Notes under the pieces: model-generated | The model's input: the letters and a program-made list of their open reading frames with translations, nothing else | The model's database searches: none | What the model was told of the DNA's origin: nothing | In this document: piece by piece, positions 5,077-54,918 of the stretch | How the letters are laid out: each line of letters opens with the position of its first letter | Position numbering within the stretch: the stretch's first letter is position 1 | Program-made: the position numbers and the translations under genes | Assembly (NCBI GenBank): GCA_021814165.1 | Contig: JAKAIX010000001.1 | Span: 77,623 to 141,622 of the forward strand | Length of the DNA stretch: 64,000 nucleotides | Reading direction: 5' to 3' | Source: a bacterium | GTDB lineage: Bacteria; Patescibacteriota; Minisyncoccia; UBA6257; GWB1-50-10

Positions 5077-5769
5077 ATGAAGGGGAGCAAAAAGGCAGTG
5101 ATTCTTTATGGGCCGCCGGGTTCGGGAAAAGGAACTCAGGCGGAGCTTCTCGTGCGACGTTACGGATTTTTCCACTTCGACACCGGTCAATATCTCCGCC
5201 GCCTCCTAAACGACCCGAAGAATAAAAACAACAAAGAGATTCAGAGAGAGAAGAAGTTGAACGAAGAAGGCACACTCAACACCCCTTCGTTCGTCCTCAA
5301 ACGAGTGAGAGAAGAAACGCGCCGGATTTCCCGGATGGGTCTAAGCATCACCTATAGCGGATCGCCGCGGACGCTTTTCGAAGCCTTCGGCGACGTCAAA
5401 CACGAAGGTCTTCTCGCTCTGTTAAAAAAAGAATATGGGACGAAGAACGTGTTTATTATCCAACTTCTCGTGAATTCCGCTTCCGCCGCAAAGCGAAACG
5501 CCGGTCGGCTTATGTGCGCCGTCTGCGGTTTGCCGATCCTTGCCGCCTCGAAAACAACAACATGTTCATTTTGCGGCGCACCGGCAAAACGGAGGGTAGA
5601 CGACGATCCGAAAATTTTTGCACACCGCATCGAAGAATACAAAAAACGTACATTCCCCATTCTTACAAAGGCGATTGCACGAGGCTACGCCATCAAAAAG
5701 ATAAACGGGGAACCGGCACCCTATCGCGTTCATGATGCGATAGCCGCATACCTGGAAAAGGCACACTAA
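5077..5769 (+). CDS. adk: Adenylate kinase (long form with insertion and C4 LID)
   Basis: P-loop [11 protein letters not shown] and zinc LID CAVCG...CSFCG. A ~50-aa Lys/Glu-rich insertion follows the NMP-binding region. Confidence 0.85.
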
Positions 5770-6533
5770 TGATTTCCCTAAAAGGTGAGAAAGATATCGA
5801 ATTGCTTCGCGATTCGGGGAAGATTCTTGTTAAGATTCTTCTCGCGCTTAAAGAAAAATCGATCGCCGGCACGAATCTCCTCGAACTCGAGACGACGGCA
5901 CGCGACATGCTCCGCGAAGCGGGCGCAACCTCGGCGTTTTTGAACTACAAGCCCGAAGGTGCTTCACGTCCGTATCCCGCGGTGCTTTGCACTTCACTGA
6001 ACGAGCAGGTGGTGCACGGCATACCGTTCGATTACTCCCTGAAGGAAGGCGATGTTCTGAAGATCGATTTCGGCGTCGTTTATAAGGAACGGATAACCGA
6101 CGCAGCGATTACCATCCCGATAGGCAAGGTAACGAACGCCGCAAAAGAGCTCGTGAAGACTACCGAAGAATCTCTTCAAAAAGGAATTGCCGCCGCGAAG
6201 GCGAAAGGCGCGCGTTTGGGTGATATCGGGTGGGCGATAGAACACGAGGTTGAAGGACAAGGGTTTTCGGTTGTCGACGGACTCACCGGGCACGGCGTCG
6301 GCTTTAAACTCCACGAAGATCCGAACGTCTATAATTACGGCCAAAAAGGAGAAGGAATGATACTTAAGGAAGGGCTGGTAATTGCGATAGAACCGATGGT
6401 GAGCGCGGGTTCTTCACAGATTATCCAGAGAGAAGACGGGAGTTACCAGACGAAAGACGGGGCCCTAAGCGCTCATTTTGAAAAAACAATCGCCATTACA
6501 AAAAATGGCGTCGAGATACTTACTACCTTTTAG
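5769..6533 (+). CDS. map: Methionine aminopeptidase type I
   Basis: Pita-bread metal-ligand motifs (DFGVVYKERITDAA, GHGVGFKLHEDP, IAIEPM). Operon position after adk. Confidence 0.9.
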   Translation: MISLKGEKDIELLRDSGKILVKILLALKEKSIAGTNLLELETTARDMLREAGATSAFLNYKPEGASRPYPAVLCTSLNEQVVHGIPFDYSLKEGDVLKIDFGVVYKERITDAAITIPIGKVTNAAKELVKTTEESLQKGIAAAKAKGARLGDIGWAIEHEVEGQGFSVVDGLTGHGVGFKLHEDPNVYNYGQKGEGMILKEGLVIAIEPMVSAGSSQIIQREDGSYQTKDGALSAHFEKTIAITKNGVEILTTF

Positions 6534-6548
6534 CTATTCCTTTTTTAT

Positions 6549-6629
6549 CCCGAACTCCATTCTTCTGAACGAGGGTAAGACTTGGCCAAGCGGCCCGGAG
6601 CGCCCGAGTGAAGGAAAATGGAGTTCGGG
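6549..6629. repeat. Conserved-core hairpin element, family B copy 1, + orientation
   Basis: Arms cccgaactccatt / aatggagttcggg flank the core GAACGAGGGTAAGACTTGGCCAAGCGGCCCGGAGCGCCCGAG. The same core recurs at 36290, 40415 and 43938. Confidence 0.8.
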
Positions 6630-6631
6630 GT

Positions 6632-8713
6632 TTATTCTTCCTTGTCTCCGCTCTTATCTTCGTCTGCGTCCCCGTCACCATCACCATCCTCGCCGTCCTT
6701 ATTCTCCGGTTTCGTCCAGCTTGCAAAATCACACTCCGGATAACGGTTGCATCCGTAAAAAAACCTTCCCCGCTTTGTCCTCCTCCGAATTACCCTTCCC
6801 GTCCCGCACTTGGGACATGGCCCCAGATCGTTCGATCCCGTGGGAGCAAGTGATTTGGTGCTCTTGCACTCCGGAAAGCCCGTACAGGCCAAAAATCGCC
6901 CAAAACGGCCCGTTTTTATGGCCATCGGCTTGCCACATCTTTCGCAAACCTCGTCTGTGGACTCTTGGGGCGCCAAGGCCTCTTTTTGGACACTCTCGTA
7001 TTTCTTCTCAAGATGTTTCTTAAAAGGTTCATAGAATTCGCGTATGGTATCCCGCCATCTTCTTTTTCCCTCGGCGACTTCGTCAAGCTCCTCTTCCATG
7101 TGCGCAGTAAACCCGAGATCGACGATCTCGGGAAAGTGTTCCGTAAGCACCTTGTTCACCAGAAGTCCTATTTCCGTCGGTTCGAAACGGCGCTCCGGGT
7201 TCTTTTGGACATAATTTCTGCTCTGAATAACCGAGATGATGGGAGCGTACGTGGAAGGCCGCCCGATCCCGTTCGCTTCGAGTGTTTTAATCAGACTTGC
7301 TTCGTTATAACGCGCAGGGGGTTCGGTAAAATGCTGCTCGGGTTTTACCTCCGAAAATCGCAGCGCTTCTCCTTTTTTGAGTGCGGGAAGAAGCCTTTCT
7401 TCGAACGTTTGATTCCACACTCTCAAAAATCCGTCGAAGCGCATTGTCGCCCCGTTTGCCTTGAGTGTAAACGTGTCATCTCCATTCCTCGCTTCGACGA
7501 GAACGCTTGTAAGCGCGAAAATTGCCGGGGGGAGTTGAGAAGCCATGAATCTGCGCCAGATCAGGTCATATAGTTTCTTTTCCTTTGCGTCCTCGAGCGT
7601 AATGGAAACGGGATCGAGGAGGGGATTCGTCGGACGTATTGCTTCGTGCGCTTCTTGTGCAAGACGCGATTTTGTTTTGAACACCCGGGGAGCTTCCAAA
7701 AGATAATTCTTGCCGAACTTCTCGCCGATGTATTTCTGCGCGATATGAAGCGATTCCGTCGAGAGATTCACCGAATCGGTGCGCATATAGGTGATGAAGC
7801 CGTTCTCATAAAGTCTCTGTGCAAGCATCATCGTCTGTTTTGCACTCATGTGAAGGCGACGGTTCGCCTCTTGTTGAAGCGTACTTGTAATAAACGGCGG
7901 GAGGGGATTGCGTTTCATTTCTTTCTCCTCGATCGCAATCACGGAGTATGTCGCGTTTTTCAGCTTCTCCGCGATCGCCGTCGCATCGGCCTTGTTCCGA
8001 ATCGTGAATTTCTCGAACGGTTCTCCCCCGATTTTAAAAAGTGAGGCTTCAAATACGTTCTCTTTCGTATTCTCGGGAGAGAGTATTACGCGGATCGTCC
8101 AATATTCTTCCGGTTTGAAGCGCTTAATCTCTTCTTCCCGTTCCACAATAAGCCGCAGAGCGACCGATTGCACCCGGCCGGCGGAAAGTCCCCGCACGAT
8201 CTTCTTCCAAAGAAAAGGGGAAAGTTCGTATCCCACAAGGCGGTCCAAGACGCGCCTTGCTTGCTGGGCGTCCACGAGATGCAGGTTGAGCGCTCTCGGA
8301 TGTTTCAACGCGTCCTGAATCGCGGACTCCGTAATTTCATGAAATACGATACGCTCGACCGGAATATCTTTCTTGACTTGGGATTTGGAACTTTTGATTT
8401 GAAAACCCCCAAGCTCAAGAGCTTGGGTAAGATGCCACGCGATGGCTTCTCCCTCCCGGTCTTCGTCGGTTGCGAGAATAACTTCATCCGCTTTCACCGC
8501 AAGTTTTTTTAAAGCGGTGACGTTCTTCTTCGCCTTCATCGGAATGATATAATGCGGTTCGAAGTCGTGCTCGATATCGATGCCGATCTTGCTCTTCGGC
8601 AGGTCCCTGATATGCCCGTAGGAAGATTCTACATGAAACCCCTCTCCCAGGAATTTGCCTATCGTTTTGGCTTTGGTGGGGCTTTCAACGATGACTAATT
8701 TCGTCTGTTTCAT
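6632..8713 (-). CDS. topA: DNA topoisomerase I
   Basis: Toprim N-terminus MKQTKLVIVESPTKAKTIGKFLG, C-terminal CxxC zinc ribbons and an acidic DGEDGDGDGDADEDK tail. Confidence 0.93.
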   Translation of the reverse strand: MKQTKLVIVESPTKAKTIGKFLGEGFHVESSYGHIRDLPKSKIGIDIEHDFEPHYIIPMKAKKNVTALKKLAVKADEVILATDEDREGEAIAWHLTQALELGGFQIKSSKSQVKKDIPVERIVFHEITESAIQDALKHPRALNLHLVDAQQARRVLDRLVGYELSPFLWKKIVRGLSAGRVQSVALRLIVEREEEIKRFKPEEYWTIRVILSPENTKENVFEASLFKIGGEPFEKFTIRNKADATAIAEKLKNATYSVIAIEEKEMKRNPLPPFITSTLQQEANRRLHMSAKQTMMLAQRLYENGFITYMRTDSVNLSTESLHIAQKYIGEKFGKNYLLEAPRVFKTKSRLAQEAHEAIRPTNPLLDPVSITLEDAKEKKLYDLIWRRFMASQLPPAIFALTSVLVEARNGDDTFTLKANGATMRFDGFLRVWNQTFEERLLPALKKGEALRFSEVKPEQHFTEPPARYNEASLIKTLEANGIGRPSTYAPIISVIQSRNYVQKNPERRFEPTEIGLLVNKVLTEHFPEIVDLGFTAHMEEELDEVAEGKRRWRDTIREFYEPFKKHLEKKYESVQKEALAPQESTDEVCERCGKPMAIKTGRFGRFLACTGFPECKSTKSLAPTGSNDLGPCPKCGTGRVIRRRTKRGRFFYGCNRYPECDFASWTKPENKDGEDGDGDGDADEDKSGDKEE

Positions 8714-9638: not shown

Positions 9639-9713
9639 TGGTGGGCATGGAAGGAATCGAACCTTCGACCTCTGTCTTATCAGGACAGCGTTCTACCACT
9701 GAACTACATGCCC
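9639..9713 (-). tRNA. tRNA-Ile (anticodon GAT), CCA encoded
   Basis: Reverse complement is GGGCATGTAGTTCAGTGGTAGAACGCTGTCCTGATAAGACAGAGGTCGAAGGTTCGATTCCTTCCATGCCCACCA. All four arms pair and the anticodon loop is CTGATAA. Confidence 0.9.
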
Positions 9714-9975
9714 GTATTCTTTATAAATCCATCTTTTACTATCTTATCAATATAATCCTTTCGCTTTAGTTTTTTCAACCTCAATTCTATTTTCCTGGCA
9801 ATCTACAAGCTTGGAAATTTTTGAACAAAAACTAATTTTTTTTCGTCCATTCTCCTTGTTGTTTGAGTATGACCGTGCTGGTGTTGATACCATCTTCTAT
9901 AAATATCATTAGTACTTCCAATGTACAATCTATTGTTCGTACCATCTTTAATAATATAAACAAAGCCATCCATAG

Positions 9976-10051
9976 GCGTTCTACCATCCCGACGCGCTTC
10001 GCGGTCGGGACTCCGACCCCCGAAGGGGCGTCGGAGTTGAACTACATGCCC
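9976..10051 (-). pseudogene. Partial tRNA-Ile copy (positions 1-26) with a 50-nt double-hairpin insertion in the D-loop
   Basis: Reverse complement is GGGCATGTAGTTCA + [ACTCCGACGCCCCTTCGGGGGTCGGAGT CCCGACCGCGAAGCGCGTCGGG] + ATGGTAGAACGC. It then diverges with no anticodon or T arm. Confidence 0.7.
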
Positions 10052-10079
10052 AAATTACGATTTTGAGTGTAAGTGAATT

Positions 10080-10953: not shown

Positions 10954-10959
10954 AACCTT

Positions 10960-11205
10960 ATGTTCTCTGTCTATGTCTTAAAAAGCCTGAAAAACGGGAA
11001 GAGATATATTGGGTATACGAGCAAACCTCCACAAGTAAGGTTAAAAGAACACAATAATGGTTCGAATGCATTCACCAAAAATAACAAACCATTTGTGTTG
11101 ATATATTCCGAACAGTATAGTAATAAAAGAGAAGCCATCCAGAGAGAGCACTTTCTGAAATCAGGGAAGGGGAGAGAATTTCTGGATAACAGTTTGGGCC
11201 GTTAG
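10960..11205 (+). CDS. Small standalone GIY-YIG nuclease-family protein (81 aa)
   Basis: VYVLKSLKNGKRYIGYTSKPPQVRLKEHNNG...NKREAIQREHFLK is a GIY-YIG/URI domain. Its TAG stop codon lies inside the 5' end of tRNA-Ala. Confidence 0.75.
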   Translation: MFSVYVLKSLKNGKRYIGYTSKPPQVRLKEHNNGSNAFTKNNKPFVLIYSEQYSNKREAIQREHFLKSGKGREFLDNSLGR

Positions 11206-11268
11206 CTTAGTTGGTAGAGCGCCTCGTTTGCAACGAGGAGGTCACCGGTTCGAATCCGGTACGGTCCA
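11196..11268 (+). tRNA. tRNA-Ala (anticodon TGC)
   Basis: GGGCCGTTAGCTTAGTTGGTAGAGCGCCTCGTTTGCAACGAGGAGGTCACCGGTTCGAATCCGGTACGGTCCA. G3:U70 pair present, anticodon loop TTTGCAA. Confidence 0.9.
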
Positions 11269-30673: not shown

Positions 30674-30991
30674 ATGTATTATGCATACATCTTGTTAAGT
30701 TCAAAATCTCATATCTTTTATTACGGATCCACAAGGAATCTCAAGACGCGATTTCAGCTTCATAACTCTGGGAAGGTTCCTTCCACAAAACCACATCTAC
30801 CATGGAAACTGGTTTGGTATGGCGGATTTGAGACAGAAAAAGAAGCTAGAGATTTCGAACTTTACCTAAAGACGGGGTCTGGAAAATCATTCGCATACAA
30901 ACATCTTGTCTCCGTAGCTTTGGCGGAGGATTTTACAAAAGGAAGAATGGGTAGTCTGAAGTCATCCGCAGTCCGAAGGACGAAGGACTGA
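30674..30991 (+). CDS. Small standalone GIY-YIG nuclease-family protein (~105 aa)
   Basis: MYYAYILLSSKSHIFYYGSTRNLKTRFQLHNSG...ETEKEARDFELYLKTGSG is a GIY-YIG/URI domain. Flanked by tRNA-Leu 3'-end copies. Confidence 0.75.
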   Translation: MYYAYILLSSKSHIFYYGSTRNLKTRFQLHNSGKVPSTKPHLPWKLVWYGGFETEKEARDFELYLKTGSGKSFAYKHLVSVALAEDFTKGRMGSLKSSAVRRTKD

Positions 30992-35198: not shown

Positions 35199-36254
35199 AT
35201 GAAATTCAAACCTGACTCTCCGCAAGAACAGGAGAAGATGCTTGATCTTAGAACAACCCCGATCCCCGAAATGGGAGAAGAAACCCGTGAAAAGTTCGAG
35301 AAAAAAGAGTGGCGGGATATACCGATTACCGAACCGACGACGCACGAACCGAAGTTACTTGAAGTGATCCCGAATCGCTTTAATTCGGGAAAAGCGATGG
35401 CGTGGCCCGCATACTACAAAACCGTAGCGGAGGAAAACGAGAACGACAGAAAACCGAAAGGGTTCGGAGAGCTAGCCCAAGCGATCGAAGGAAAAATCCA
35501 AACTTCTCCTTTCGTGAAGGTAAGAACGGAGATAAAGGAGAAACTAGATCGGGCACAAAACATCCTCGATCAGAATATCGACACTTCTAACTTCCAACTT
35601 GTGGTGGTGGATGGTTACCGCCGCATCGATGTTCAGAGGGAGTTGTTTAACACTTATTATAACTACCTCGACAGGGAACAGCCGGGAACATCGAAAGAAG
35701 AGTTAATAACAATGGCACGTAAGATGGTGTCCGAGGCGCCGAAAGATTCCGAGATTCTTCGAAAATCACCCCCGCCTCATAGCACGGGGGGAGCGGTAGA
35801 TGTTGTTCTGGTCTATAAAAATAAAATCGATACCTCCTCGGATTATTGGCTTCAAGAGGCAATGGTTCCGTTTGGCGCCAAGTTCGATGAAATGATGGAT
35901 CCGACCTACAGAGACAAAAGAAGCGAAACGACCTTTTATGAAAAAGAACTTAGGAAGGGGACACTAAACGAAGAAGAGCGGGAAGCTTTGGAAAATCGAA
36001 GGATTCTTTATAATGTGCTGACCGAGGTAGGGTTTTCCAATTATTTCACGGAATTCTGGCACTACGACTTCGGAAATCAGTTTAATGCTGCCGCAACAGG
36101 CAAACCGTCCGCAAAATTCGGTTTTGCGGGGGGAATCGAGGACAATGGACACATTGCAGAGGATCTTGGCGCAGAGAAAGCCGCCTTTGAAAACTACAAA
36201 GCATCACACGATCCCGAAGAAGCGGAGAGAGTGAAATATCACTTCGGTCTCTAG
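35199..36254 (+). CDS. D-Ala-D-Ala dipeptidase (VanX / peptidase M15D family)
   Basis: PHSTGGAVDV and EFWHYD zinc-ligand motifs. Confidence 0.75.
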   Translation: MKFKPDSPQEQEKMLDLRTTPIPEMGEETREKFEKKEWRDIPITEPTTHEPKLLEVIPNRFNSGKAMAWPAYYKTVAEENENDRKPKGFGELAQAIEGKIQTSPFVKVRTEIKEKLDRAQNILDQNIDTSNFQLVVVDGYRRIDVQRELFNTYYNYLDREQPGTSKEELITMARKMVSEAPKDSEILRKSPPPHSTGGAVDVVLVYKNKIDTSSDYWLQEAMVPFGAKFDEMMDPTYRDKRSETTFYEKELRKGTLNEEEREALENRRILYNVLTEVGFSNYFTEFWHYDFGNQFNAAATGKPSAKFGFAGGIEDNGHIAEDLGAEKAAFENYKASHDPEEAERVKYHFGL

Positions 36255-36289
36255 GAGAACAATTATTCATCCCTATACCAACACAACTA

Positions 36290-36373
36290 CCTCGCGTCGT
36301 GCTCTCCCGAACGAGGGTAAGACTTGGCCAAGCGGCCCGGAGCGCCCGAGTTGAGGGAGAGCACGACGCGAGG
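36290..36373. repeat. Conserved-core hairpin element, family B copy 2, + orientation
   Basis: 19-bp perfect arms cctcgcgtcgtgctctccc / gggagagcacgacgcgagg around the core GAACGAGGGTAAGACTTGGCCAAGCGGCCCGGAGCGCCCGAG. Confidence 0.8.
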
Positions 36374-36549
36374 CCCCACACCCCTAGTTATGCACATATT
36401 GAATTGTGGCGCAGATGATTCACAATAAGAGTACAGCGTCTCGCCGCAATGGCCTGCGGAACTCCGCTGAAAGGTCATTAACGAACAAAACAATGGCAAA
36501 GAAAAAGAAGGGCAAGAAGAAATAGTTTCTTTTGTGTTCTTTTTCGTAG

Positions 36550-38435: not shown

Positions 38436-40391
38436 ATGCCAAAGAAAAAAGAAGCAGAAAAAGAACCGAAAAAAGAGACAAAAAACGAGCAAAAATCCTC
38501 CTACGACGCGAAAGACATCTATGTCTTGGAGGGCCTGGAACCGGTAAGGAGAAGGCCCGGAATGTACATCGGCTCCACGGGGGTTGATGGACTCCATCAT
38601 TTGATCTGGGAAGTCGTCGACAACTCGATCGACGAAGCGATGGCGGGGTATGCGAAACACATCACCGTCGAGATATCGAAAGACAGCCGCATAGCGGTCA
38701 CGGACGATGGCCGCGGCATTCCCGTCGATATTCATCCGCAGACGAAGAAATCGGCGCTCGAAACCGTGTTAACCACGCTTCATGCCGGAGGAAAATTCGG
38801 CGGCGAATCGTATAAAGTTTCCGGAGGTCTTCACGGCGTCGGCGTTTCCGTCGTAAACGCACTCTCAAAATGGCTCAAAGTCGAGGTGCAAAGAAACGGA
38901 ACGGTGTACACGCAGGAATACGTCCGGGGCACCCCGAAAGGAAACGTAAAGAAAAACGGAATCTCAAAGGGAACCGGCACGAAAGTAACGTTCGATGCGG
39001 ATCCGGAAATTTTCCAGAAAATAGAATATGACAGGAAAAAAATCCTGGACCACCTGCGTCAGCAGGCATACCTCACAAAAGGAGTACGAATCAGCTTCGT
39101 GGATGAACGCGGGGAACAACCTTTTTTCTACGGGTTCTATTTCGATGGAGGACTTAAATCATTCATTCGACATCTGCTTGAAGGGGAAACGGCGCTCCAG
39201 AGCGAACCTTTCTATATGCACAAGAATCACGAATCGATCGATATCGAAGTGGCATTCACGTACGTGGAAGATCAGGAATCGAGGGAATTGAGCTTCGCGA
39301 ACAATATTTATACGCCTGACGGCGGTATGCACCTCACCGGACTTCGGTCCGCGCTTACAAGAACGCTCAACGATTACGCACGCACCGAAAACTACCTGAA
39401 AGAAAACGACGACAATCTCACGGGAGATGACATTCGGGAAGGAATCATCGCAATCGTGTCGGTTAAGATTCCCGAGCCGCAATTCGAGGGACAAACAAAG
39501 GCGCGTCTGGGGAATCCCGAGGCGAGAACGGCCGTCGAGGCGGTGGTAAACGAAGCACTCAAGGAATTTCTTGAACGTCATTCGGCCGATGCGAGAAAGA
39601 TAATCGAGAAGAACCTCCTCGCCGCAAAAGCAAGGAAGGCCGCAAAAGCCGCGAAGGATACCGTGCTCCGCAAGGGCGCGCTGGAAGGTCTTACACTGCC
39701 GGGGAAGCTTGCGGACTGTTCATCGAGGAAGGCGGAGGATTCCGAGATCTTCATCGTGGAAGGCGATTCCGCAGGAGGAAGCGCAAAACAGGGAAGAGAC
39801 CGGCGTTTTCAGGCCATTCTCCCGCTCAAAGGAAAAATCTTGAACGTAGAAAAATCCCGCATCGATAAGATGCTTGCAAACAAAGAGGTCCGATCGCTCG
39901 TGATAGCGCTCGGGACGGCGATCTCCGAGAATTTCGACATCGAGAAACTCCGTTATCATAAAATCATCCTCATGACGGATGCCGATGTGGACGGTGCGCA
40001 CATCACGACGCTTCTCCTTACGCTCTTCTACCGCTATTTCCCGAAGATCGTCGAGGACGGTTATCTTTATCTCGCCCAACCGCCGCTCTTTCGCGTTCAG
40101 AAGGGAAAAGAATTCCAGTATGCATATACGGAGAACGAACGCGATCGAATCGCAAAAAAGATGGGGGAGCAGGGAGTTACTATCCAACGCTATAAAGGTT
40201 TGGGAGAAATGAATCCGACACAACTCTGGGAAACAACCATGAACCCCGAAACGCGGCTCTTGAAGCAGATTATGATCGAGGACACCGTCGAGGCCGACAA
40301 ACTCTTCGACGTGCTTATGGGAGAAGTGGTGGAACCACGCAAAAATTTCATTCAGGCGCATGCACTTACCGTGAAGAATTTGGATGTGTAA
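38436..40391 (+). CDS. gyrB: DNA gyrase subunit B
   Basis: LEGLEPVRRRPGMYIGST, GHKL ATPase, Toprim EGDSAGG, C-terminal tail. Confidence 0.93.
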   Translation: MPKKKEAEKEPKKETKNEQKSSYDAKDIYVLEGLEPVRRRPGMYIGSTGVDGLHHLIWEVVDNSIDEAMAGYAKHITVEISKDSRIAVTDDGRGIPVDIHPQTKKSALETVLTTLHAGGKFGGESYKVSGGLHGVGVSVVNALSKWLKVEVQRNGTVYTQEYVRGTPKGNVKKNGISKGTGTKVTFDADPEIFQKIEYDRKKILDHLRQQAYLTKGVRISFVDERGEQPFFYGFYFDGGLKSFIRHLLEGETALQSEPFYMHKNHESIDIEVAFTYVEDQESRELSFANNIYTPDGGMHLTGLRSALTRTLNDYARTENYLKENDDNLTGDDIREGIIAIVSVKIPEPQFEGQTKARLGNPEARTAVEAVVNEALKEFLERHSADARKIIEKNLLAAKARKAAKAAKDTVLRKGALEGLTLPGKLADCSSRKAEDSEIFIVEGDSAGGSAKQGRDRRFQAILPLKGKILNVEKSRIDKMLANKEVRSLVIALGTAISENFDIEKLRYHKIILMTDADVDGAHITTLLLTLFYRYFPKIVEDGYLYLAQPPLFRVQKGKEFQYAYTENERDRIAKKMGEQGVTIQRYKGLGEMNPTQLWETTMNPETRLLKQIMIEDTVEADKLFDVLMGEVVEPRKNFIQAHALTVKNLDV

Positions 40392-40414: not shown

Positions 40415-40500
40415 GCAGGCTGGTAAACCGAAAAAGTGTGCGCTCCGGGCCGCTTGGCCAAGTCTTACCCACTTTTTCGCCATACCAGCCTGCTTTTTGT
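40415..40500. repeat. Conserved-core hairpin element, family B copy 3, - orientation, followed by T tract
   Basis: Arms gcaggctggtaaaccgaaaaagtg / cactttttcgccataccagcctgc around gcgctccgggccgcttggccaagtcttaccc (reverse complement of the core), then ctttttgttt. Confidence 0.8.
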
Positions 40501-40679: not shown

Positions 40680-41177
40680 ATGAAAACGAAAGAACAGAAG
40701 AAAGAACAGATTGAGTTGGGTATAAAACACCTCGACAAGAACGAGACGGTGCTTTTTACCGACTTCACGGGTCTGAACGCGAACGATTTGAACGCGCTCC
40801 GGAGAGCGGTAAAAGAACTGGGAGGAAAAATGATTGTAATGAAAAAGCGACTTTTGAAGCTCTCGCTCGCATCGAAGGGAATTGAGTTCGATTCGAAACA
40901 GTTCGAGGGCCAGGCGGGAGTTATTTTCTCGCCGAAGGATATCGTGGAAACTTCGGGAGTCGTCTATAAGTTCGGCAAGCCGTTTATCGCAAAGAGTATC
41001 TTTAAGATGCTCGGCGGACTGCATATTGGCGAGAAACGATTCGTAAGCGCGGAAGAAGTTCTGATGCTCGGGCAATTGCCGCCACGTGAGGTGCTTCTGG
41101 GACAACTTGTCGGCATGATCGCCGCACCTATCCGCTCATTCATGTTCGTACTTGATCAAAAAGCGAAACAATCGTAA
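40680..41177 (+). CDS. rplJ: 50S ribosomal protein L10
   Basis: L10 fold sequence [53 protein letters not shown], followed by L7/L12. Confidence 0.9.
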
Positions 41178-42378: not shown

Positions 42379-43166
42379 AAATCGTCAGCTTCAACATAGG
42401 AATGAAGATCGATAACAGTAAGGAAGTTGCCAGACTATTAAAAGAGCAAGATCCCGACATTATATGTCTGCAAGAGGTGATCCGGCATCTCTCTGACTCC
42501 GCTTACCATAAGTTTCAATCCAAGGCGATTATAGATAAATATCTTGACCGTACCTATCGTTACAGATTCTTTGGTCCACAATGGATCTCCCGCGCTGTCT
42601 ACAAACATGGGAAACTTCATCGTGATTACGGTGGATTAGTGGAACAGGGTAATTACATTCTTTCGAAGTATCCGATCGTGGAAGCGACAAACGAGCACTA
42701 TTTCAAACACTACTCTCTGGAGATAGACCACACAAATTTCGAAAATATCGATCATCCTCGTTCGGTAGCGATAGCCACCCTAAAAATCAAAGGCAAGAAA
42801 CTGACGATATTCAATTTGCACGGAACATATAGCACCCGTAAAGGGGATACTCCACGCTCCATCGCGCAGGCGAAGTACATTGTGAAGCGAGCGAAAGAGT
42901 TCAAAAATCCGCTCATACTCATAGGAGATTTCAACGTGACGCCGGATACAAAAACAATGAAGATTATAAACCGGGAATTCGACAATATAATGAATCATTT
43001 TCCCGTCACACAGACACTCCCTTATTTCAAGGGAAAAAAAGACAACAAGATGATAGTCGACTACGTTCTCACCAACAAAAAGGTTCGGGCCATAAATTTC
43101 CAAGTATATAGGAGTAATATCTCGGATCATCTGCCGCTCATATTCGACTTCGCAATAAAACAATGA
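42375..43166 (+). CDS. Endonuclease/exonuclease/phosphatase (EEP) family protein
   Basis: MKIVSFNIGM...DIICLQEV...GDFNVTPD are EEP motifs. ATGA overlap with the upstream gene. Confidence 0.7.
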   Translation: MKIVSFNIGMKIDNSKEVARLLKEQDPDIICLQEVIRHLSDSAYHKFQSKAIIDKYLDRTYRYRFFGPQWISRAVYKHGKLHRDYGGLVEQGNYILSKYPIVEATNEHYFKHYSLEIDHTNFENIDHPRSVAIATLKIKGKKLTIFNLHGTYSTRKGDTPRSIAQAKYIVKRAKEFKNPLILIGDFNVTPDTKTMKIINREFDNIMNHFPVTQTLPYFKGKKDNKMIVDYVLTNKKVRAINFQVYRSNISDHLPLIFDFAIKQ

Positions 43167-43741
43167 TCACGGAACAATTTCTCAAGAAGGTACGCGATTT
43201 CGCTTACGCTGAAGAAGCGAAGTTTCACACTCCGCCGAAATTTCATGTCGACTTCACTAACGAAAAAGGACTCAAACTCGCCGAGGCACTCCACGCGAAC
43301 AAAGACATCGTATCCGCCGGAACATTTCTCATGGACTCCATGCTGGGCGCCGCAATGACGGAAGGAAGATTGAAAGAACACGTAATGATGGCGGTGAAAA
43401 AAACAAAAGAGCTCTTCGGGGAATTCCCGGAACTCACGGAAGAGGAGAAAGAAAACATCCTGAATTGTGTCCGTGAACATCATGGCGCAGAACGATTTTC
43501 CTCCCTCGAGTCGGAAATATGCTGCAACGCAGACTGTTATAGATTTTTGAGCATGGAGGGAGTCGTCGGTGGAATGAAAAACTTCAGAGAAATGGAGAAG
43601 AAAGAATTGATAGATCTATTCTTAAAGAAAGGAGAAGAGAAATGGAACGTGTTGAGTTTATCGGGATGCAAGAAAGAGTTGGAACCGCAATACCAGGCTG
43701 TAAAGGTACTTCTTCAAAGAATGAAGGGAGAAGAGAAATGA
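43163..43741 (+). CDS. Hypothetical protein (possible HD-like phosphohydrolase)
   Basis: 192-aa ORF with an HxxxH..D-type pattern (VREHHGAERF); weak. Confidence 0.4.
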   Translation: MITEQFLKKVRDFAYAEEAKFHTPPKFHVDFTNEKGLKLAEALHANKDIVSAGTFLMDSMLGAAMTEGRLKEHVMMAVKKTKELFGEFPELTEEEKENILNCVREHHGAERFSSLESEICCNADCYRFLSMEGVVGGMKNFREMEKKELIDLFLKKGEEKWNVLSLSGCKKELEPQYQAVKVLLQRMKGEEK

Positions 43742-43935: not shown

Positions 43936-43937
43936 GT

Positions 43938-44020
43938 CTCTATACTGCATTCCCCTTCGCTCGGGCGCTCCGGGCCGCTTGGCCAAGTCATACCCTCGCT
44001 CAGAGGAATGCAGCATAGAG
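43938..44020. repeat. Conserved-core hairpin element, family B copy 4, - orientation (core variant GGTATGAC)
   Basis: Arms ctctatactgcattcc / ggaatgcagcatagag around ctcgggcgctccgggccgcttggccaagtcataccctcg. Confidence 0.8.
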
Positions 44021-44054
44021 AAAGGAGGATATAGGAAAAAACGTTGAAATCGAC

Positions 44055-44486
44055 ATGATTCTAGGTGAATACAGACATAATTTAGACACGAAAGGGCGGC
44101 TGGCTATACCGGCGAAGTTCCGCGAAAAAATAGAGGCCGGAGCCATCATCACTCGCGGACTGGACAGATGTTTATTCGTATTCGGACCGCAGGAGTGGGA
44201 AAATCTTGTTCAAAAACTCACCGCGCTTCCGCTCGCACAAGCGAACTCGAGAGCGTTTGTACGGCTTATGCTCGCGGGAGCAAGCGATGCAAAGCCGGAC
44301 ACCCAGGGAAGAATCCTGATTCCCGATTATCTTCGAAAGTATGCAGGACTGAAGAAAGGGACGGTCGTTGCCGGTCTCTACAATCGGTTCGAGATATGGG
44401 ATGAAGAGGAATGGAATGCATACAAACAGAAAACCGAATCGACATCCGATGAGATCGCGGAAAAGCTGGGAGAACTGGGTATTTAA
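44055..44486 (+). CDS. mraZ: Transcriptional regulator MraZ
   Basis: Two SpoVT/AbrB-like halves: GEYRHNLDTKGRLAIPAKFRE and DTQGRILIPDYLRKYAGL. Confidence 0.9.
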   Translation: MILGEYRHNLDTKGRLAIPAKFREKIEAGAIITRGLDRCLFVFGPQEWENLVQKLTALPLAQANSRAFVRLMLAGASDAKPDTQGRILIPDYLRKYAGLKKGTVVAGLYNRFEIWDEEEWNAYKQKTESTSDEIAEKLGELGI

Positions 44487-52135: not shown

Positions 52136-52166
52136 AATTTCCGTTAAAATACTCTATTCTAATACT

Positions 52167-52310
52167 GGGCGGACGGATATTAGGGAACTCACCATAAGGG
52201 TGGGAACGTCTAAGCAGCCGTGGGTTTTGAGCACTCACACATTAAAACAAAATTGGAGGTCACCACCACGGCTGCTTAGACGGAGAGGTCCATCCGCCCG
52301 AACGTTTTTA
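52167..52310. repeat. 140-nt near-perfect hairpin (10-bp outer + 17-bp perfect inner inverted repeats) followed by T tract
   Basis: GGGCGGACGG...ACGTCTAAGCAGCCGTGG...CCACGGCTGCTTAGACG...CCATCCGCCC gaacgttttt. Confidence 0.6.
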
Positions 52311-52383: not shown

Positions 52384-54918
52384 ATGTCATTTCTATCAAA
52401 AATATTTTCCGGAGATTCGCTCAAGGAATATGAGCGACAAATCGGGCTTATCAGCTCGCTTGAACCGAAATACGAGAAATTAAGCGACGAAGAACTCAAG
52501 AACGCTTCTCTGGAGCTCAAAAAAGAGATACGCGACGGGAAAACGCTCGACGATGCGCTTCCCGATGCATTCGCGATGGTACGCGAAGCGGCAAAACGAA
52601 CCCTGAAACAACGGCATTTCGATGTCCAACTCATAGGCGGCATGGCGCTTCACGAAGGGAAGATCATCGAGATGATGACAGGAGAAGGGAAGACCCTCGC
52701 CGCAACCTCTCCCGCATATCTCAATGCTATCACCGGAAACGGCGTGCATGTCGTGACCGTAAACGACTATCTCGCAAAACGCGACGCAATCTGGATGGGG
52801 CAAATATATGATCTTCTCGGACTCAAAGTCGCATGCATAGTTCATGATGCGGCTTATCTTTACGATCCGACTTACGAAACCGATCCCGAAGAAGACAGGG
52901 AGCGGGACATTTTGGGATCGTTCAGGATTTTTGAGAAGTTTCTTCGTCCCGTCACGCGACGCGACGCGTATTACGCGGACATCACGTACGGTACGAACCA
53001 CGAATTCGGCTTCGATTTTCTGCGCGACAATCTGGCGCTCCGCTTGAGCGACAAGGTGCAGCGCCCGCATGCCTACGCGATCGTGGATGAGATCGACAGC
53101 ATCTTGATCGATGAAGCGCGTACCCCGTTAATCATCGCGGCACCCGATGTCCAGGCGAGCGAACATTATAAGACCTTTGCAAGAGTCGCCTCGCACCTGA
53201 ACGAAGAAGAAGATTACATGGTTGATGAAAAACTAAAGGCGGTTTCCATCACGGAATCCGGGATCGAGAAAGTGGAAAAGATGATCGGCGTCGAGAATAT
53301 CTACGCGCCGGATAATCTTCGTCTCGTGCATTTTCTCCAAGAATCGCTCAAGGCGAAAGCGCTTTTCAAGCTCGATCGGGACTATATCGTGCGAAACGGC
53401 GAAATCATCATCGTCGACGAGTTCACGGGACGGATGCTTATGGGGCGCCGCTACTCGGGCGGACTCCATCAGGCAATCGAGGCGAAGGAGAACGTACAGG
53501 TGAAAGAAGAGAACCGCACTTTCGCGCAAATTACCATTCAAAACTACTTTCGTCTCTATAAAAAGATTTCCGGCATGACGGGTACCGCACAGACCTCCGC
53601 GGAAGAGTTCCACAAGGTATATAACCTCGATGTCGTAAGCATTCCTCCGAACCGGCCGCTCGTCCGCAAAGACTTTCCCGACGCGATCTACAAAACGAAA
53701 GACGCGAAATACAACGCGGTTGTGAGGGCGGTGAAAGAAGCGAGGGAAGCGGGGAGGCCGGTCTTGATCGGTACGACCTCCATTCAAAACAACGAAATTA
53801 TCTCCGGCTACCTCTCGCGCGCGGCGATTCCTCACGAGGTGCTGAATGCAAAAAACCACGAACGCGAGGGTGAAATCATCGCGCAGGCGGGACGCGCGGG
53901 GGCGGTCACCGTCGCGACAAACATGGCGGGCCGCGGCGTGGACATCGTCTTGGGCGGCAACCCGCCGAATCCGGAAGAAACGCAAAAAATGAAAGACGCG
54001 GGGGGGCTCCAGGTTATCGGCACCGAGCGCCATGAAGCGCGGCGCATCGACAACCAACTCCGCGGACGATCGGGAAGGCAGGGAGATCCCGGCGTAAGCC
54101 AGTTCTATCTTTCGCTCGAGGACGATCTGCTCCGCATCTTCGGAGGAGATCGCATCAAAGGACTCATGGAAACGCTGAATTTTCCGGAGGACGTGCCGAT
54201 CGAATCGAAGATGGTCGCAAAATCCGTAAACCAGGCGCAAACAAAAGTGGAGGGAGCGAATTTCGATATTCGCCGCCATCTTTTGGATTTCGACGACGTA
54301 TTGAACAAACAGCGCACGGCGCTTTACGCGCGCCGCGAAAAACTGCTCGAAGCGGGGGACAAAAACGAAATTTTGCCGATTCTCAAAGAAACGCTCGAGC
54401 ACTTCGCGACGCACGCAACGGAAGCGCTAAGAAACGAGATTGAACTGAACGAAATGGATGAAGCGAATCCGGAACGGGAAAAACAGATCGGAGAAATAGA
54501 AGCGAATATAAAAAAGGTTCCCGAGGCACTCGAACCGGAGCGCGCGATGATAATCGCGCAGCATATGGTGCGGATTCTGGACACCCTTTGGATCGACAAT
54601 CTCGAAAATCTCGAGGCGCTCCGGGAATCGGTGAACATTCGCGCCTACGGCCAGCATGATCCGCTCGTCGAGTACCGGCGGGAAGCGCACGGACTCTACG
54701 AACGGCTGAATAACGCGTTTGAATCAATGCTCTTTTCGACCGTGTTCCAGATTCTCGATGTCGATCTCAGAGCATTTGCGGTACAAACGCAAGCGCCGCA
54801 ACAAACGCCTCCGCCCGAGCACAAGAATATCGGAAGAAACGATCCCTGCTGGTGCGGAGCGAAAAAGGCAGATGGGACACCGAAGAAATACAAGCATTGT
54901 CATGGTAAGAACGCTTAA
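52384..54918 (+). CDS. secA: Preprotein translocase ATPase SecA
   Basis: DEAD motor motifs GEGKTL, VDEVDSILIDEARTPLII and C-terminal zinc finger CWCGAKK...HCHG. Confidence 0.95.
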   Translation: MSFLSKIFSGDSLKEYERQIGLISSLEPKYEKLSDEELKNASLELKKEIRDGKTLDDALPDAFAMVREAAKRTLKQRHFDVQLIGGMALHEGKIIEMMTGEGKTLAATSPAYLNAITGNGVHVVTVNDYLAKRDAIWMGQIYDLLGLKVACIVHDAAYLYDPTYETDPEEDRERDILGSFRIFEKFLRPVTRRDAYYADITYGTNHEFGFDFLRDNLALRLSDKVQRPHAYAIVDEIDSILIDEARTPLIIAAPDVQASEHYKTFARVASHLNEEEDYMVDEKLKAVSITESGIEKVEKMIGVENIYAPDNLRLVHFLQESLKAKALFKLDRDYIVRNGEIIIVDEFTGRMLMGRRYSGGLHQAIEAKENVQVKEENRTFAQITIQNYFRLYKKISGMTGTAQTSAEEFHKVYNLDVVSIPPNRPLVRKDFPDAIYKTKDAKYNAVVRAVKEAREAGRPVLIGTTSIQNNEIISGYLSRAAIPHEVLNAKNHEREGEIIAQAGRAGAVTVATNMAGRGVDIVLGGNPPNPEETQKMKDAGGLQVIGTERHEARRIDNQLRGRSGRQGDPGVSQFYLSLEDDLLRIFGGDRIKGLMETLNFPEDVPIESKMVAKSVNQAQTKVEGANFDIRRHLLDFDDVLNKQRTALYARREKLLEAGDKNEILPILKETLEHFATHATEALRNEIELNEMDEANPEREKQIGEIEANIKKVPEALEPERAMIIAQHMVRILDTLWIDNLENLEALRESVNIRAYGQHDPLVEYRREAHGLYERLNNAFESMLFSTVFQILDVDLRAFAVQTQAPQQTPPPEHKNIGRNDPCWCGAKKADGTPKKYKHCHGKNA

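Follow-up and report, generated by a model that had tools for sequence, protein, structure and literature searches.

Rickettsia palindromic elements (RPEs) are repeated palindromes of about 100 nt in the small genomes of host-dependent bacteria; they lie between genes and also, in frame, inside housekeeping genes, whose products gain a peptide segment, have no transposase of their own and are conserved along their entire length. The attC sites of integrons are hairpins recognised by their structure; they are located 3' of genes, at the ends of cassettes next to intI; their R and L boxes, in the stem base, are conserved, and their centre is variable. In mitochondrial GC clusters, double-hairpin elements and the organelle palindromes of Volvox, the whole element is conserved. 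These organellar repeats are short, selfish hairpins that enter intergenic DNA and at times coding sequence, and may be nested (PMC2670323); RPEs are named in PMC1779305. REP/BIME and REPIN sequences are extragenic hairpin repeats at gene 3' ends, present in either orientation and in many copies per genome (PMC3733652, PMC3184786). Roles in termination and mRNA stability have been proposed for REPs, and their folded single strand is recognised by a trans-acting HUH enzyme, the Y1 transposase RAYT, the gene of which often lies between REPs (PMC3733652, PMC3184786). TIGR units consist of an edge repeat, a 9-nt spacer A, a loop repeat and a 9-nt spacer B, and are found near a Nop-domain Tas gene (PMC12045711). 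Intervening sequences (IVSs) of 23S rRNA and short insertions in CPR rRNA are stem-loops at helix tips, sporadic and frequent in reduced genomes (PMC11270868).

Patescibacteria (CPR) genomes are among the smallest and densest in bacteria, yet the window (the whole stretch of 64 kb analysed here) contains four hairpins of roughly 80 bp built around one core, here called family B. An initial annotation had proposed them, and exact searches and folding confirm that the four copies and their conserved core exist. Comparison with the systems above suggests, as the best fit, that family B behaves like RPEs and, for the intergenic copies, like REPs, with the architecture reversed and the tip as the conserved part. 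We classify it as a bacterial palindromic repeat element, although there is a real possibility that something more distinct lies behind it.

Copy 1 (hairpin 6549-6629, + strand; centre 6576-6602) lies in the spacer between map (5769-6533, +) and the convergent topA (6632-8713, -). Its inner arms are GAACGAGGG and CCCGAGUGAAGG, its outer arms CCCGAACUCCAUU and AAUGGAGUUCGGG; it folds with -47 kcal/mol (z -6.6) and scores 66.7 bits with the covariance model described below. Copy 2 (36290-36373, + strand; centre 36318-36344) is found 3' of a Peptidase_M15 (VanX-like) gene (35199-36254), folds with -61.8 kcal/mol (z -8.4) and scores 67.2 bits. Copy 3 (40415-40493, core on the - strand; centre 40441-40467) occupies the spacer between gyrB (38436-40391, +) and rplJ (40680-41177, +), with its core antisense to both; the fold has -46.7 kcal/mol (z -6.8) and the score is 73.6 bits. 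It belongs to a GAAAAAGUG subfamily. Read on the + strand, its hairpin is followed by the T tract TTTTTGTTT, so copy 3 may double as the gyrB terminator; none of the other copies has such a tract, as the initial annotation had noted. Copy 4 (43937-44021, core on the - strand; centre 43966-43992) lies between an ORF (43163-43741, +) and mraZ (44055-44486, +), has UAUGA in place of UAAGA and scores 62.5 bits. The gene context is as first annotated (map, the VanX-like gene, gyrB, and upstream of mraZ), and two copies are sense and two antisense. The core-strand fold of all four has z values from -6.2 to -8.4 relative to shuffles, and the complementary strand folds worse.

The 42-nt core annotated in all four copies is present in three: exact at 6567-6608 (+) and 36309-36350 (+), and with 2 mismatches at 43960-44001 (-), with 0 expected from shuffles. 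At 40441 its outer GAACGAG/CCCGAG parts are missing; the match at 43960-44001 had been annotated at 43955. Common to all four is a sequence of only 31 nt, GGGTAAGA...GGAGCGC, and the central 22-mer CTTGGCCAAGCGGCCCGGAGCG occurs at 6581 (+), 36323 (+), 40441-40462 (-) and 43966 (-). The arms had been described as perfectly self-complementary and entirely different from copy to copy. They are perfect only in copy 2, over 19 bp of outer arm; copy 1 has internal loops, copy 3 a small internal loop and copy 4 one G.U/A.C position. They do diverge outwards, but copies 1, 2 and 4 share the inner-arm pattern YUCYYCYGARCGAGGG...CCCGAGNNRAGG.

An alignment of 105 copies, in which the 22-mer is constant because it served to collect them, contains the invariant string A-CUUGGCCAAGCGGCCCGGAGCG, preceded by U (99 of 104 copies), A (92), A (89) and G (101). 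The constant part is an almost invariant, asymmetric module of 27 nt, U-AAGA-CUUGGCC-NAGC-GGCCCGG-AGC-G, folding into a U.G closing pair, an AAGA/AGC internal loop, a 7-bp apical helix with one irregular U.C position and an NAGC tetraloop. In 99 of 104 copies the U before AAGA forms a U.G pair with the final G of AGCG. On either side of this centre the arms pair in register, with 86% of cells paired, and 12 of 13 arm pairs vary on both sides; not one of 500 shuffles reaches the score, and no slid register comes close. The proposed design, a conserved structured centre between covarying arms and thus the reverse of a MITE, is borne out. The arms have a median length of 27 bp and reach about 50 bp; the whole hairpin has a median of 86 nt and reaches about 136 nt.

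The covariance model was built from the alignment of copies and searched in the window, where it finds only the four copies, and in other loci, where it finds 9 copies with a diverged centre, for example CUUGGGC-UAGC-GCCCCGG and CUCGGGC-UAGC-GCCCCGG. In the apical helix, 6 copies have replaced C-G by G-C at one pair, and every pair remains intact; this covariation is clean but thin, with one covarying position only. Tetraloop variants are AAGC, UAGC, GAGC, AAGU and GCGC, GAGC coming from copies in PrmC genes. The diverged CUUGGGC-UAGC-GCCCCGG copies keep the hairpin but lose the palindrome CTTGGCCAAG, which had been pointed out in the core and is therefore incidental; for the same reason a double-stranded protein or restriction site at CTTGGCCAAG was rejected. 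GGCC-type and GGGC-type centres coexist within the same MAGs, so within-genome homogenisation is insufficient as an explanation. In the GAAAAAGUG subfamily conservation drops from 2 bits to background just beyond a 16-nt inner arm, a sharp edge that is partly due to the pattern by which the subfamily was selected, whereas in the GAACGAGGG subfamily similarity fades gradually outward. G.U pairs number 266 in the core-strand hairpin (about 81 of them the closing pair) versus 116 in the complement; the core-strand fold thus seems to matter more.

Like the RPEs, family B is a multi-copy palindrome found both between genes and in frame within them. It differs in conserving a 27-nt centre and short, subfamily-specific inner arms, while its outer arms covary and fall to background, and in belonging to a different phylum, all named hosts being CPR; by description it is set apart from RPEs. 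REPs measure 20-40 nt and have a conserved stem with a GTAG or CGTC tag, whereas family B has variable stems, a conserved loop and the longer median length given above; REPs are also conserved within species and do not occur in frame in genes, whereas family B does so and extends across a superphylum. The organellar palindromes are likewise hairpin repeats, but have no invariant asymmetric loop module. IVSs sit in rRNA and are removed by RNase III, whereas family B copies in coding sequence leave the frame intact. TIGR arrays resemble family B in being present in CPR and in flanking a conserved loop repeat with variable segments, but they are tandem, with non-pairing spacers and box C/D motifs; family B consists of dispersed singletons with self-complementary arms of 25-50 bp (median 27 pairs), and TIGR arrays were rejected as differing in every defining feature (PMC12045711). 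Compared with attC, the conservation pattern is the opposite, and the neighbours are housekeeping genes. A MITE was rejected because the ends are the variable part and because direct repeats are absent at three recent duplicates (L008, L094 and L102). A full-text search, by sequence and for palindromic or repeat elements of CPR, found no published description, which is no proof, as most subscription journals lie outside its coverage.

A scan of species-representative genomes found the 22-mer CTTGGCCAAGCGGCCCGGAGCG in at least 108 stretches from at least 39 assemblies. Among the matches listed, all records with taxon-naming titles are Patescibacteria/CPR (Saccharibacteria, Paceibacteria/Paceibacterota, Minisyncoccia, Kaiserbacteria, Nomurabacteria, Parcubacteria, Peregrinibacteria and Gracilibacteria), and the centre occurs in as many as 17 or more stretches of a single MAG. 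The core, which the initial annotation was prepared to give up if it occurred nowhere else, is thus abundant in related genomes, and the centre is identical in Saccharibacteria, Paceibacteria, Gracilibacteria and Peregrinibacteria. The window is syntenic with two carrier MAGs. Viral contigs gave 0 matches for the core, a degenerate core and one arm, on which grounds a phage or plasmid origin, or guide-like arms, were rejected. Contigs encoding an identical Map protein have an identical hairpin, without strain-level variation there. Two Logan contigs with the map gene of the window (L191 and L192) both stop within the core, at ...CTTGGCCAAGCGG, and the repeat therefore breaks short-read assemblies. 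In one Saccharibacteria MAG (L001, L019, L035, L046, L098) the hairpin is inside a larger repeat of 120-160 nt and is accompanied by a second, distinct repeat of about 40 nt (...CCUACUCCUGCAAACAGCGG), of which L019 and L098 contain numerous copies.

Three copies in one Paceibacterota MAG (L008, L094, L102) have near-identical arms and share a unit of about 110 nt between unrelated flanks; no direct repeats or target-site duplications were found at these recent duplicates. Related copies are present on several contigs of FK3.bin18 (L027, L033, L073). Copies at L045:4761 and L079:4204 have empty counterparts in the window, at 9716-10055 and about 61300, respectively, these filled and empty pairs being too diverged for alignment at the nucleotide level. 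No RAYT-like gene was seen near the copies, and no transposase or other partner gene is enriched, the 791 ORFs in 108 loci clustering into housekeeping families. Now and then a small GIY-YIG ORF is found close to a copy, but such ORFs are mostly located beside tRNAs; as the ORF clusters at the loci are all housekeeping, a neighbouring mobilising gene was rejected.

Orthologues of copies 1 and 2 occupy the same sites in two other MAGs, whose genes have a nucleotide identity of about 78%. The centre is identical at 27 of 27 positions in both (copy 1 in L045, copy 2 in L029); the 5' arm of copy 1 is identical at 11 of 18 positions, and the arms of the two orthologues differ at about 40% of positions and still pair. 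Six copies in PrmC genes, taken from a search not selecting on the centre, have a mean pairwise identity of 94% in the centre, 53% in the 5' arm, 47% in the 3' arm and 40% at third codon positions of the flanking conserved codons. A seventh (L109) has several centre changes and an eighth (L111) is flipped: in L111, P0138 and P0146 the centre and the adjacent mismatch at the PrmC site are reverse-complemented between the same arms. The flipped core could result from inversion between the arms or from re-insertion in the opposite orientation, and either route would explain the arbitrary orientation described below.

In Saccharibacteria and Paceibacteria the centre is also found inside long ORFs, in both orientations. 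The coding copies use three of five open frames, reading KTWPSGPER, RLGQAARS or, antisense, RSGPLGQVL. Pfam domains of the host protein flank the insert in a LysS-type class II aminoacyl-tRNA synthetase, ValS, CysS, YchF and QueA, and also in a PMT glycosyltransferase and a tRNA methyltransferase. One ArgS gene has two copies, and in ArgS the core is antisense; ArgS orthologues of 530-637 amino acids have inserts at the same few loop positions; these include copies of family B that have diverged and inserts of one or more other families. A third in-frame insert family (...SSADALL..RTSSTARSATPASS...) is present in Saccharibacteria ArgS (P0012, P0014, P0046, P0057, P0068, P0082), occupying the same loop positions as family B in P0001.

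The linker of PrmC from PRPETE to LDLCxGSG has 15-22 residues in most CPR orthologues and about 45 in more than 40 Paceibacteria proteins reading ...ESFSVVRLG[LQR]AARSATENDSA.... The gain of about 27 residues (81 nt) corresponds to the whole hairpin including the arms, which thus belong to the inserted DNA and not to native sequence; empty orthologues have no palindrome at the linker site. As the gain is not the centre plus one arm, arms made as an inverted copy of the local target were rejected. All inspected PrmC loci and coding copies keep the reading frame and contain no stops, so the coding copies are presumably translated, and intron-like removal was rejected. At the same PrmC linker site in other Paceibacteria, metagenome contigs (L110, L112, L120, L128, L133) have hairpins of another kind, 'type C', with a centre different from that of family B (...GCGACGGCGCGAGCAGGAGG-AAnUUUUUC-AGCA-GAAAAAU...). 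L112 contains an L110-type element with an additional hairpin inside its AGCA loop. Type C was not found in the window.

Of the 53 intergenic copies whose flanking ORFs are clear, 34 lie between tandem genes (core antisense in 22, sense in 12), 16 between convergent genes and 3 between divergent genes. At least one gene 3' end adjoins 50 of the 53, and the direction of the core relative to the flanking genes is arbitrary. An orientation set by replication was rejected, as the window is without a GC-skew switch and has copies on both strands. Across 111 copies, a U-rich stretch seldom occupies the eight nucleotides that follow the hairpin, whichever strand is read. The GC-rich hairpin followed by a U tract that makes an intrinsic terminator is, as a rule, not what these copies present, and a simple terminator scan flags none of these hairpins.

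The reading we prefer, with a probability of about 0.5, is that family B is a non-autonomous, RPE-like palindromic insertion element of many CPR lineages, the centre of which would be read, folded and single-stranded, by a putative protein. The inserted unit is the whole hairpin with its arms, as the PrmC linkers show, and the element has multiplied within genomes, as the recent duplicates show. Copies persist where they do little harm, in spacers at gene 3' ends and in in-frame linkers of housekeeping proteins. Their arms would drift almost as fast as silent sites, complementarity being held by hairpin-templated (quasi-palindrome) correction, by selection or by both, and the centre would be kept as the recognition part for a putative trans-acting CPR protein that spreads or maintains the element. 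Arbitrary orientation and exact antisense copies inside genes make a DNA hairpin or cruciform likelier than mRNA as the recognised form. Individual copies, copy 3 for example, may have a second use as terminators. Of the two natures first suggested for family B, a plain RNA of 3' UTRs is undermined by the arbitrary orientation, the in-frame copies and the multiplication, whereas a nucleic-acid site for a putative protein is viable.

The weak point of a selfish element is that the tip is strongly conserved at old, fixed sites, where an immobile selfish copy should decay. Because of this constraint in situ, a host-level function or an addiction- or homing-like mechanism remains a serious alternative, and plain selfishness accounts for the constraint no better than a host function or an addiction-like mechanism does. 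It is possible, and we put it forward tentatively, that the tip is the site of a dedicated, putative CPR-wide protein and is selected locus by locus, for host function or in an addiction- or homing-like way, the element perhaps moving from hairpin to hairpin; if true, a major bacterial branch would possess its own, new class of structure-specific genetic elements. Less probable than the preferred reading is a module that serves the host, in which the tip, as RNA or as DNA in a cruciform, would bind a putative conserved CPR protein under purifying selection at each locus and might act in protection or processing of mRNA 3' ends, in termination, in the nucleoid, in supercoiling or in relation to replication. 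Such a module would account for a centre that stays the same at orthologous sites while arms and silent sites diverge, for one centre shared by Saccharibacteria, Paceibacteria, Gracilibacteria and Peregrinibacteria, and for the abutment of 50 of 53 intergenic copies on a gene 3' end, the other 3 lying between divergent genes; the resemblance of copy 3 to a working terminator and the G.U excess in favour of the core-strand hairpin point the same way. The antisense core in 22 of 34 tandem contexts and in ArgS speaks against a role in mRNA, and U tracts are found in only some copies; at the DNA level, such a module would tolerate either orientation. Insertions in essential genes, recent duplicates and differences in presence and absence are typical of repeats and not of placed regulatory sites.

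A mobile unit made of the centre and the subfamily-specific inner arms might land in the loop of an existing hairpin or palindrome, the outer arms then being those of the target, and repeated landings would yield nested hairpins. We consider this unlikely, at least as the sole mode of insertion, because the net gain in PrmC is the whole hairpin and the empty orthologues are without a palindrome; besides, no hairpin was found that exists both with its centre and in a form lacking it. The sharp edge of conservation outside the 16-nt inner arm of the GAAAAAGUG subfamily would fit such landings, but is partly an effect of the selecting pattern, and the GAACGAGGG subfamily decays gradually. Also in their favour are the outer arms and T tract of copy 3, which resemble a native gyrB terminator, an extra 8-bp inverted repeat (GAAACGUC/GACGUUUC) flanking the L094 unit, the lineage-specific centres at the PrmC site together with the nested hairpin of L112, and a GAACGAGG/CGAGUGAAG motif that is beside the centre in the window but outside the 23-bp arms in L008. 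A small self-cleaving ribozyme with a variable closing stem, twister-like or of a new class, is highly improbable. The likeness, raised in the initial annotation, is one of general look: a conserved core, a covarying closing helix and UAA beside a helix. Twister also has a variable closing helix around a conserved core, but its covariance model, with a double-pseudoknot architecture, is unmatched. Rfam at gathering thresholds returned 5 tRNAs only over the whole window, and permissive scans (E up to 10) of 36270-36390 and of the bare module 40432-40476 gave no credible match and no twister, twister-sister, pistol, hatchet, hammerhead or other ribozyme. Their best matches were microRNA precursors, which match any long hairpin, and the DUF1874 RNA (RF02953), at 18.2 bits against a cut-off of 42; the latter has GGUAAGA and a hairpin string in common with family B, and the bare module does not match it. 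Membership of any Rfam family was therefore rejected. The constant part is, moreover, just one simple hairpin of 27 nt, half of the copies are antisense to transcription, and cleavage by the sense copies in PrmC, ValS and CysS mRNAs would destroy essential messages.

Should family B be selfish, it would be an unusually built, RPE-like invader of essential genes, pointing to a putative mobilising enzyme; should it be maintained for the host, it would mark a CPR-specific putative system of nucleic acid and protein. Either way there are practical effects: the element adds length to aminoacyl-tRNA synthetases in CPR, interrupts assemblies and might be used as a lineage marker.

Other features of the window are separate from family B. 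The 21-nt palindrome TATCGAGGCCGGGCCTCGATA occurs six times (13464, 22186, 38234, 38271, 41684 and 52110) versus 0 expected; its copies are short GC-rich hairpins in ORF spacers that resemble the ordinary terminators of the genome, and are probably the 'family A' of the initial annotation. The sequence TGAACTACATGCCC overlaps the end of a tRNA gene (9642-9713, -) and is repeated about 340 nt away, at about 10043-10056, with a GIY-YIG-like ORF (9710-9964, -) between the two copies; the stretch bounded by them (9642-10056) may be a small element integrated at the tRNA. More GIY-YIG-like ORFs are found beside tRNA genes at 10954-11211 and 30674-30907. At 52160-52310, upstream of an ORF of 844 amino acids (52384-54918), GGGCGGACGGA pairs over a long range with UCCAUCCGCCC, enclosing a hairpin (52207-52282) with perfect 17-bp arms and a 42-nt loop. 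This structure, for which Rfam gave no match, could be a structured leader or a small RNA.
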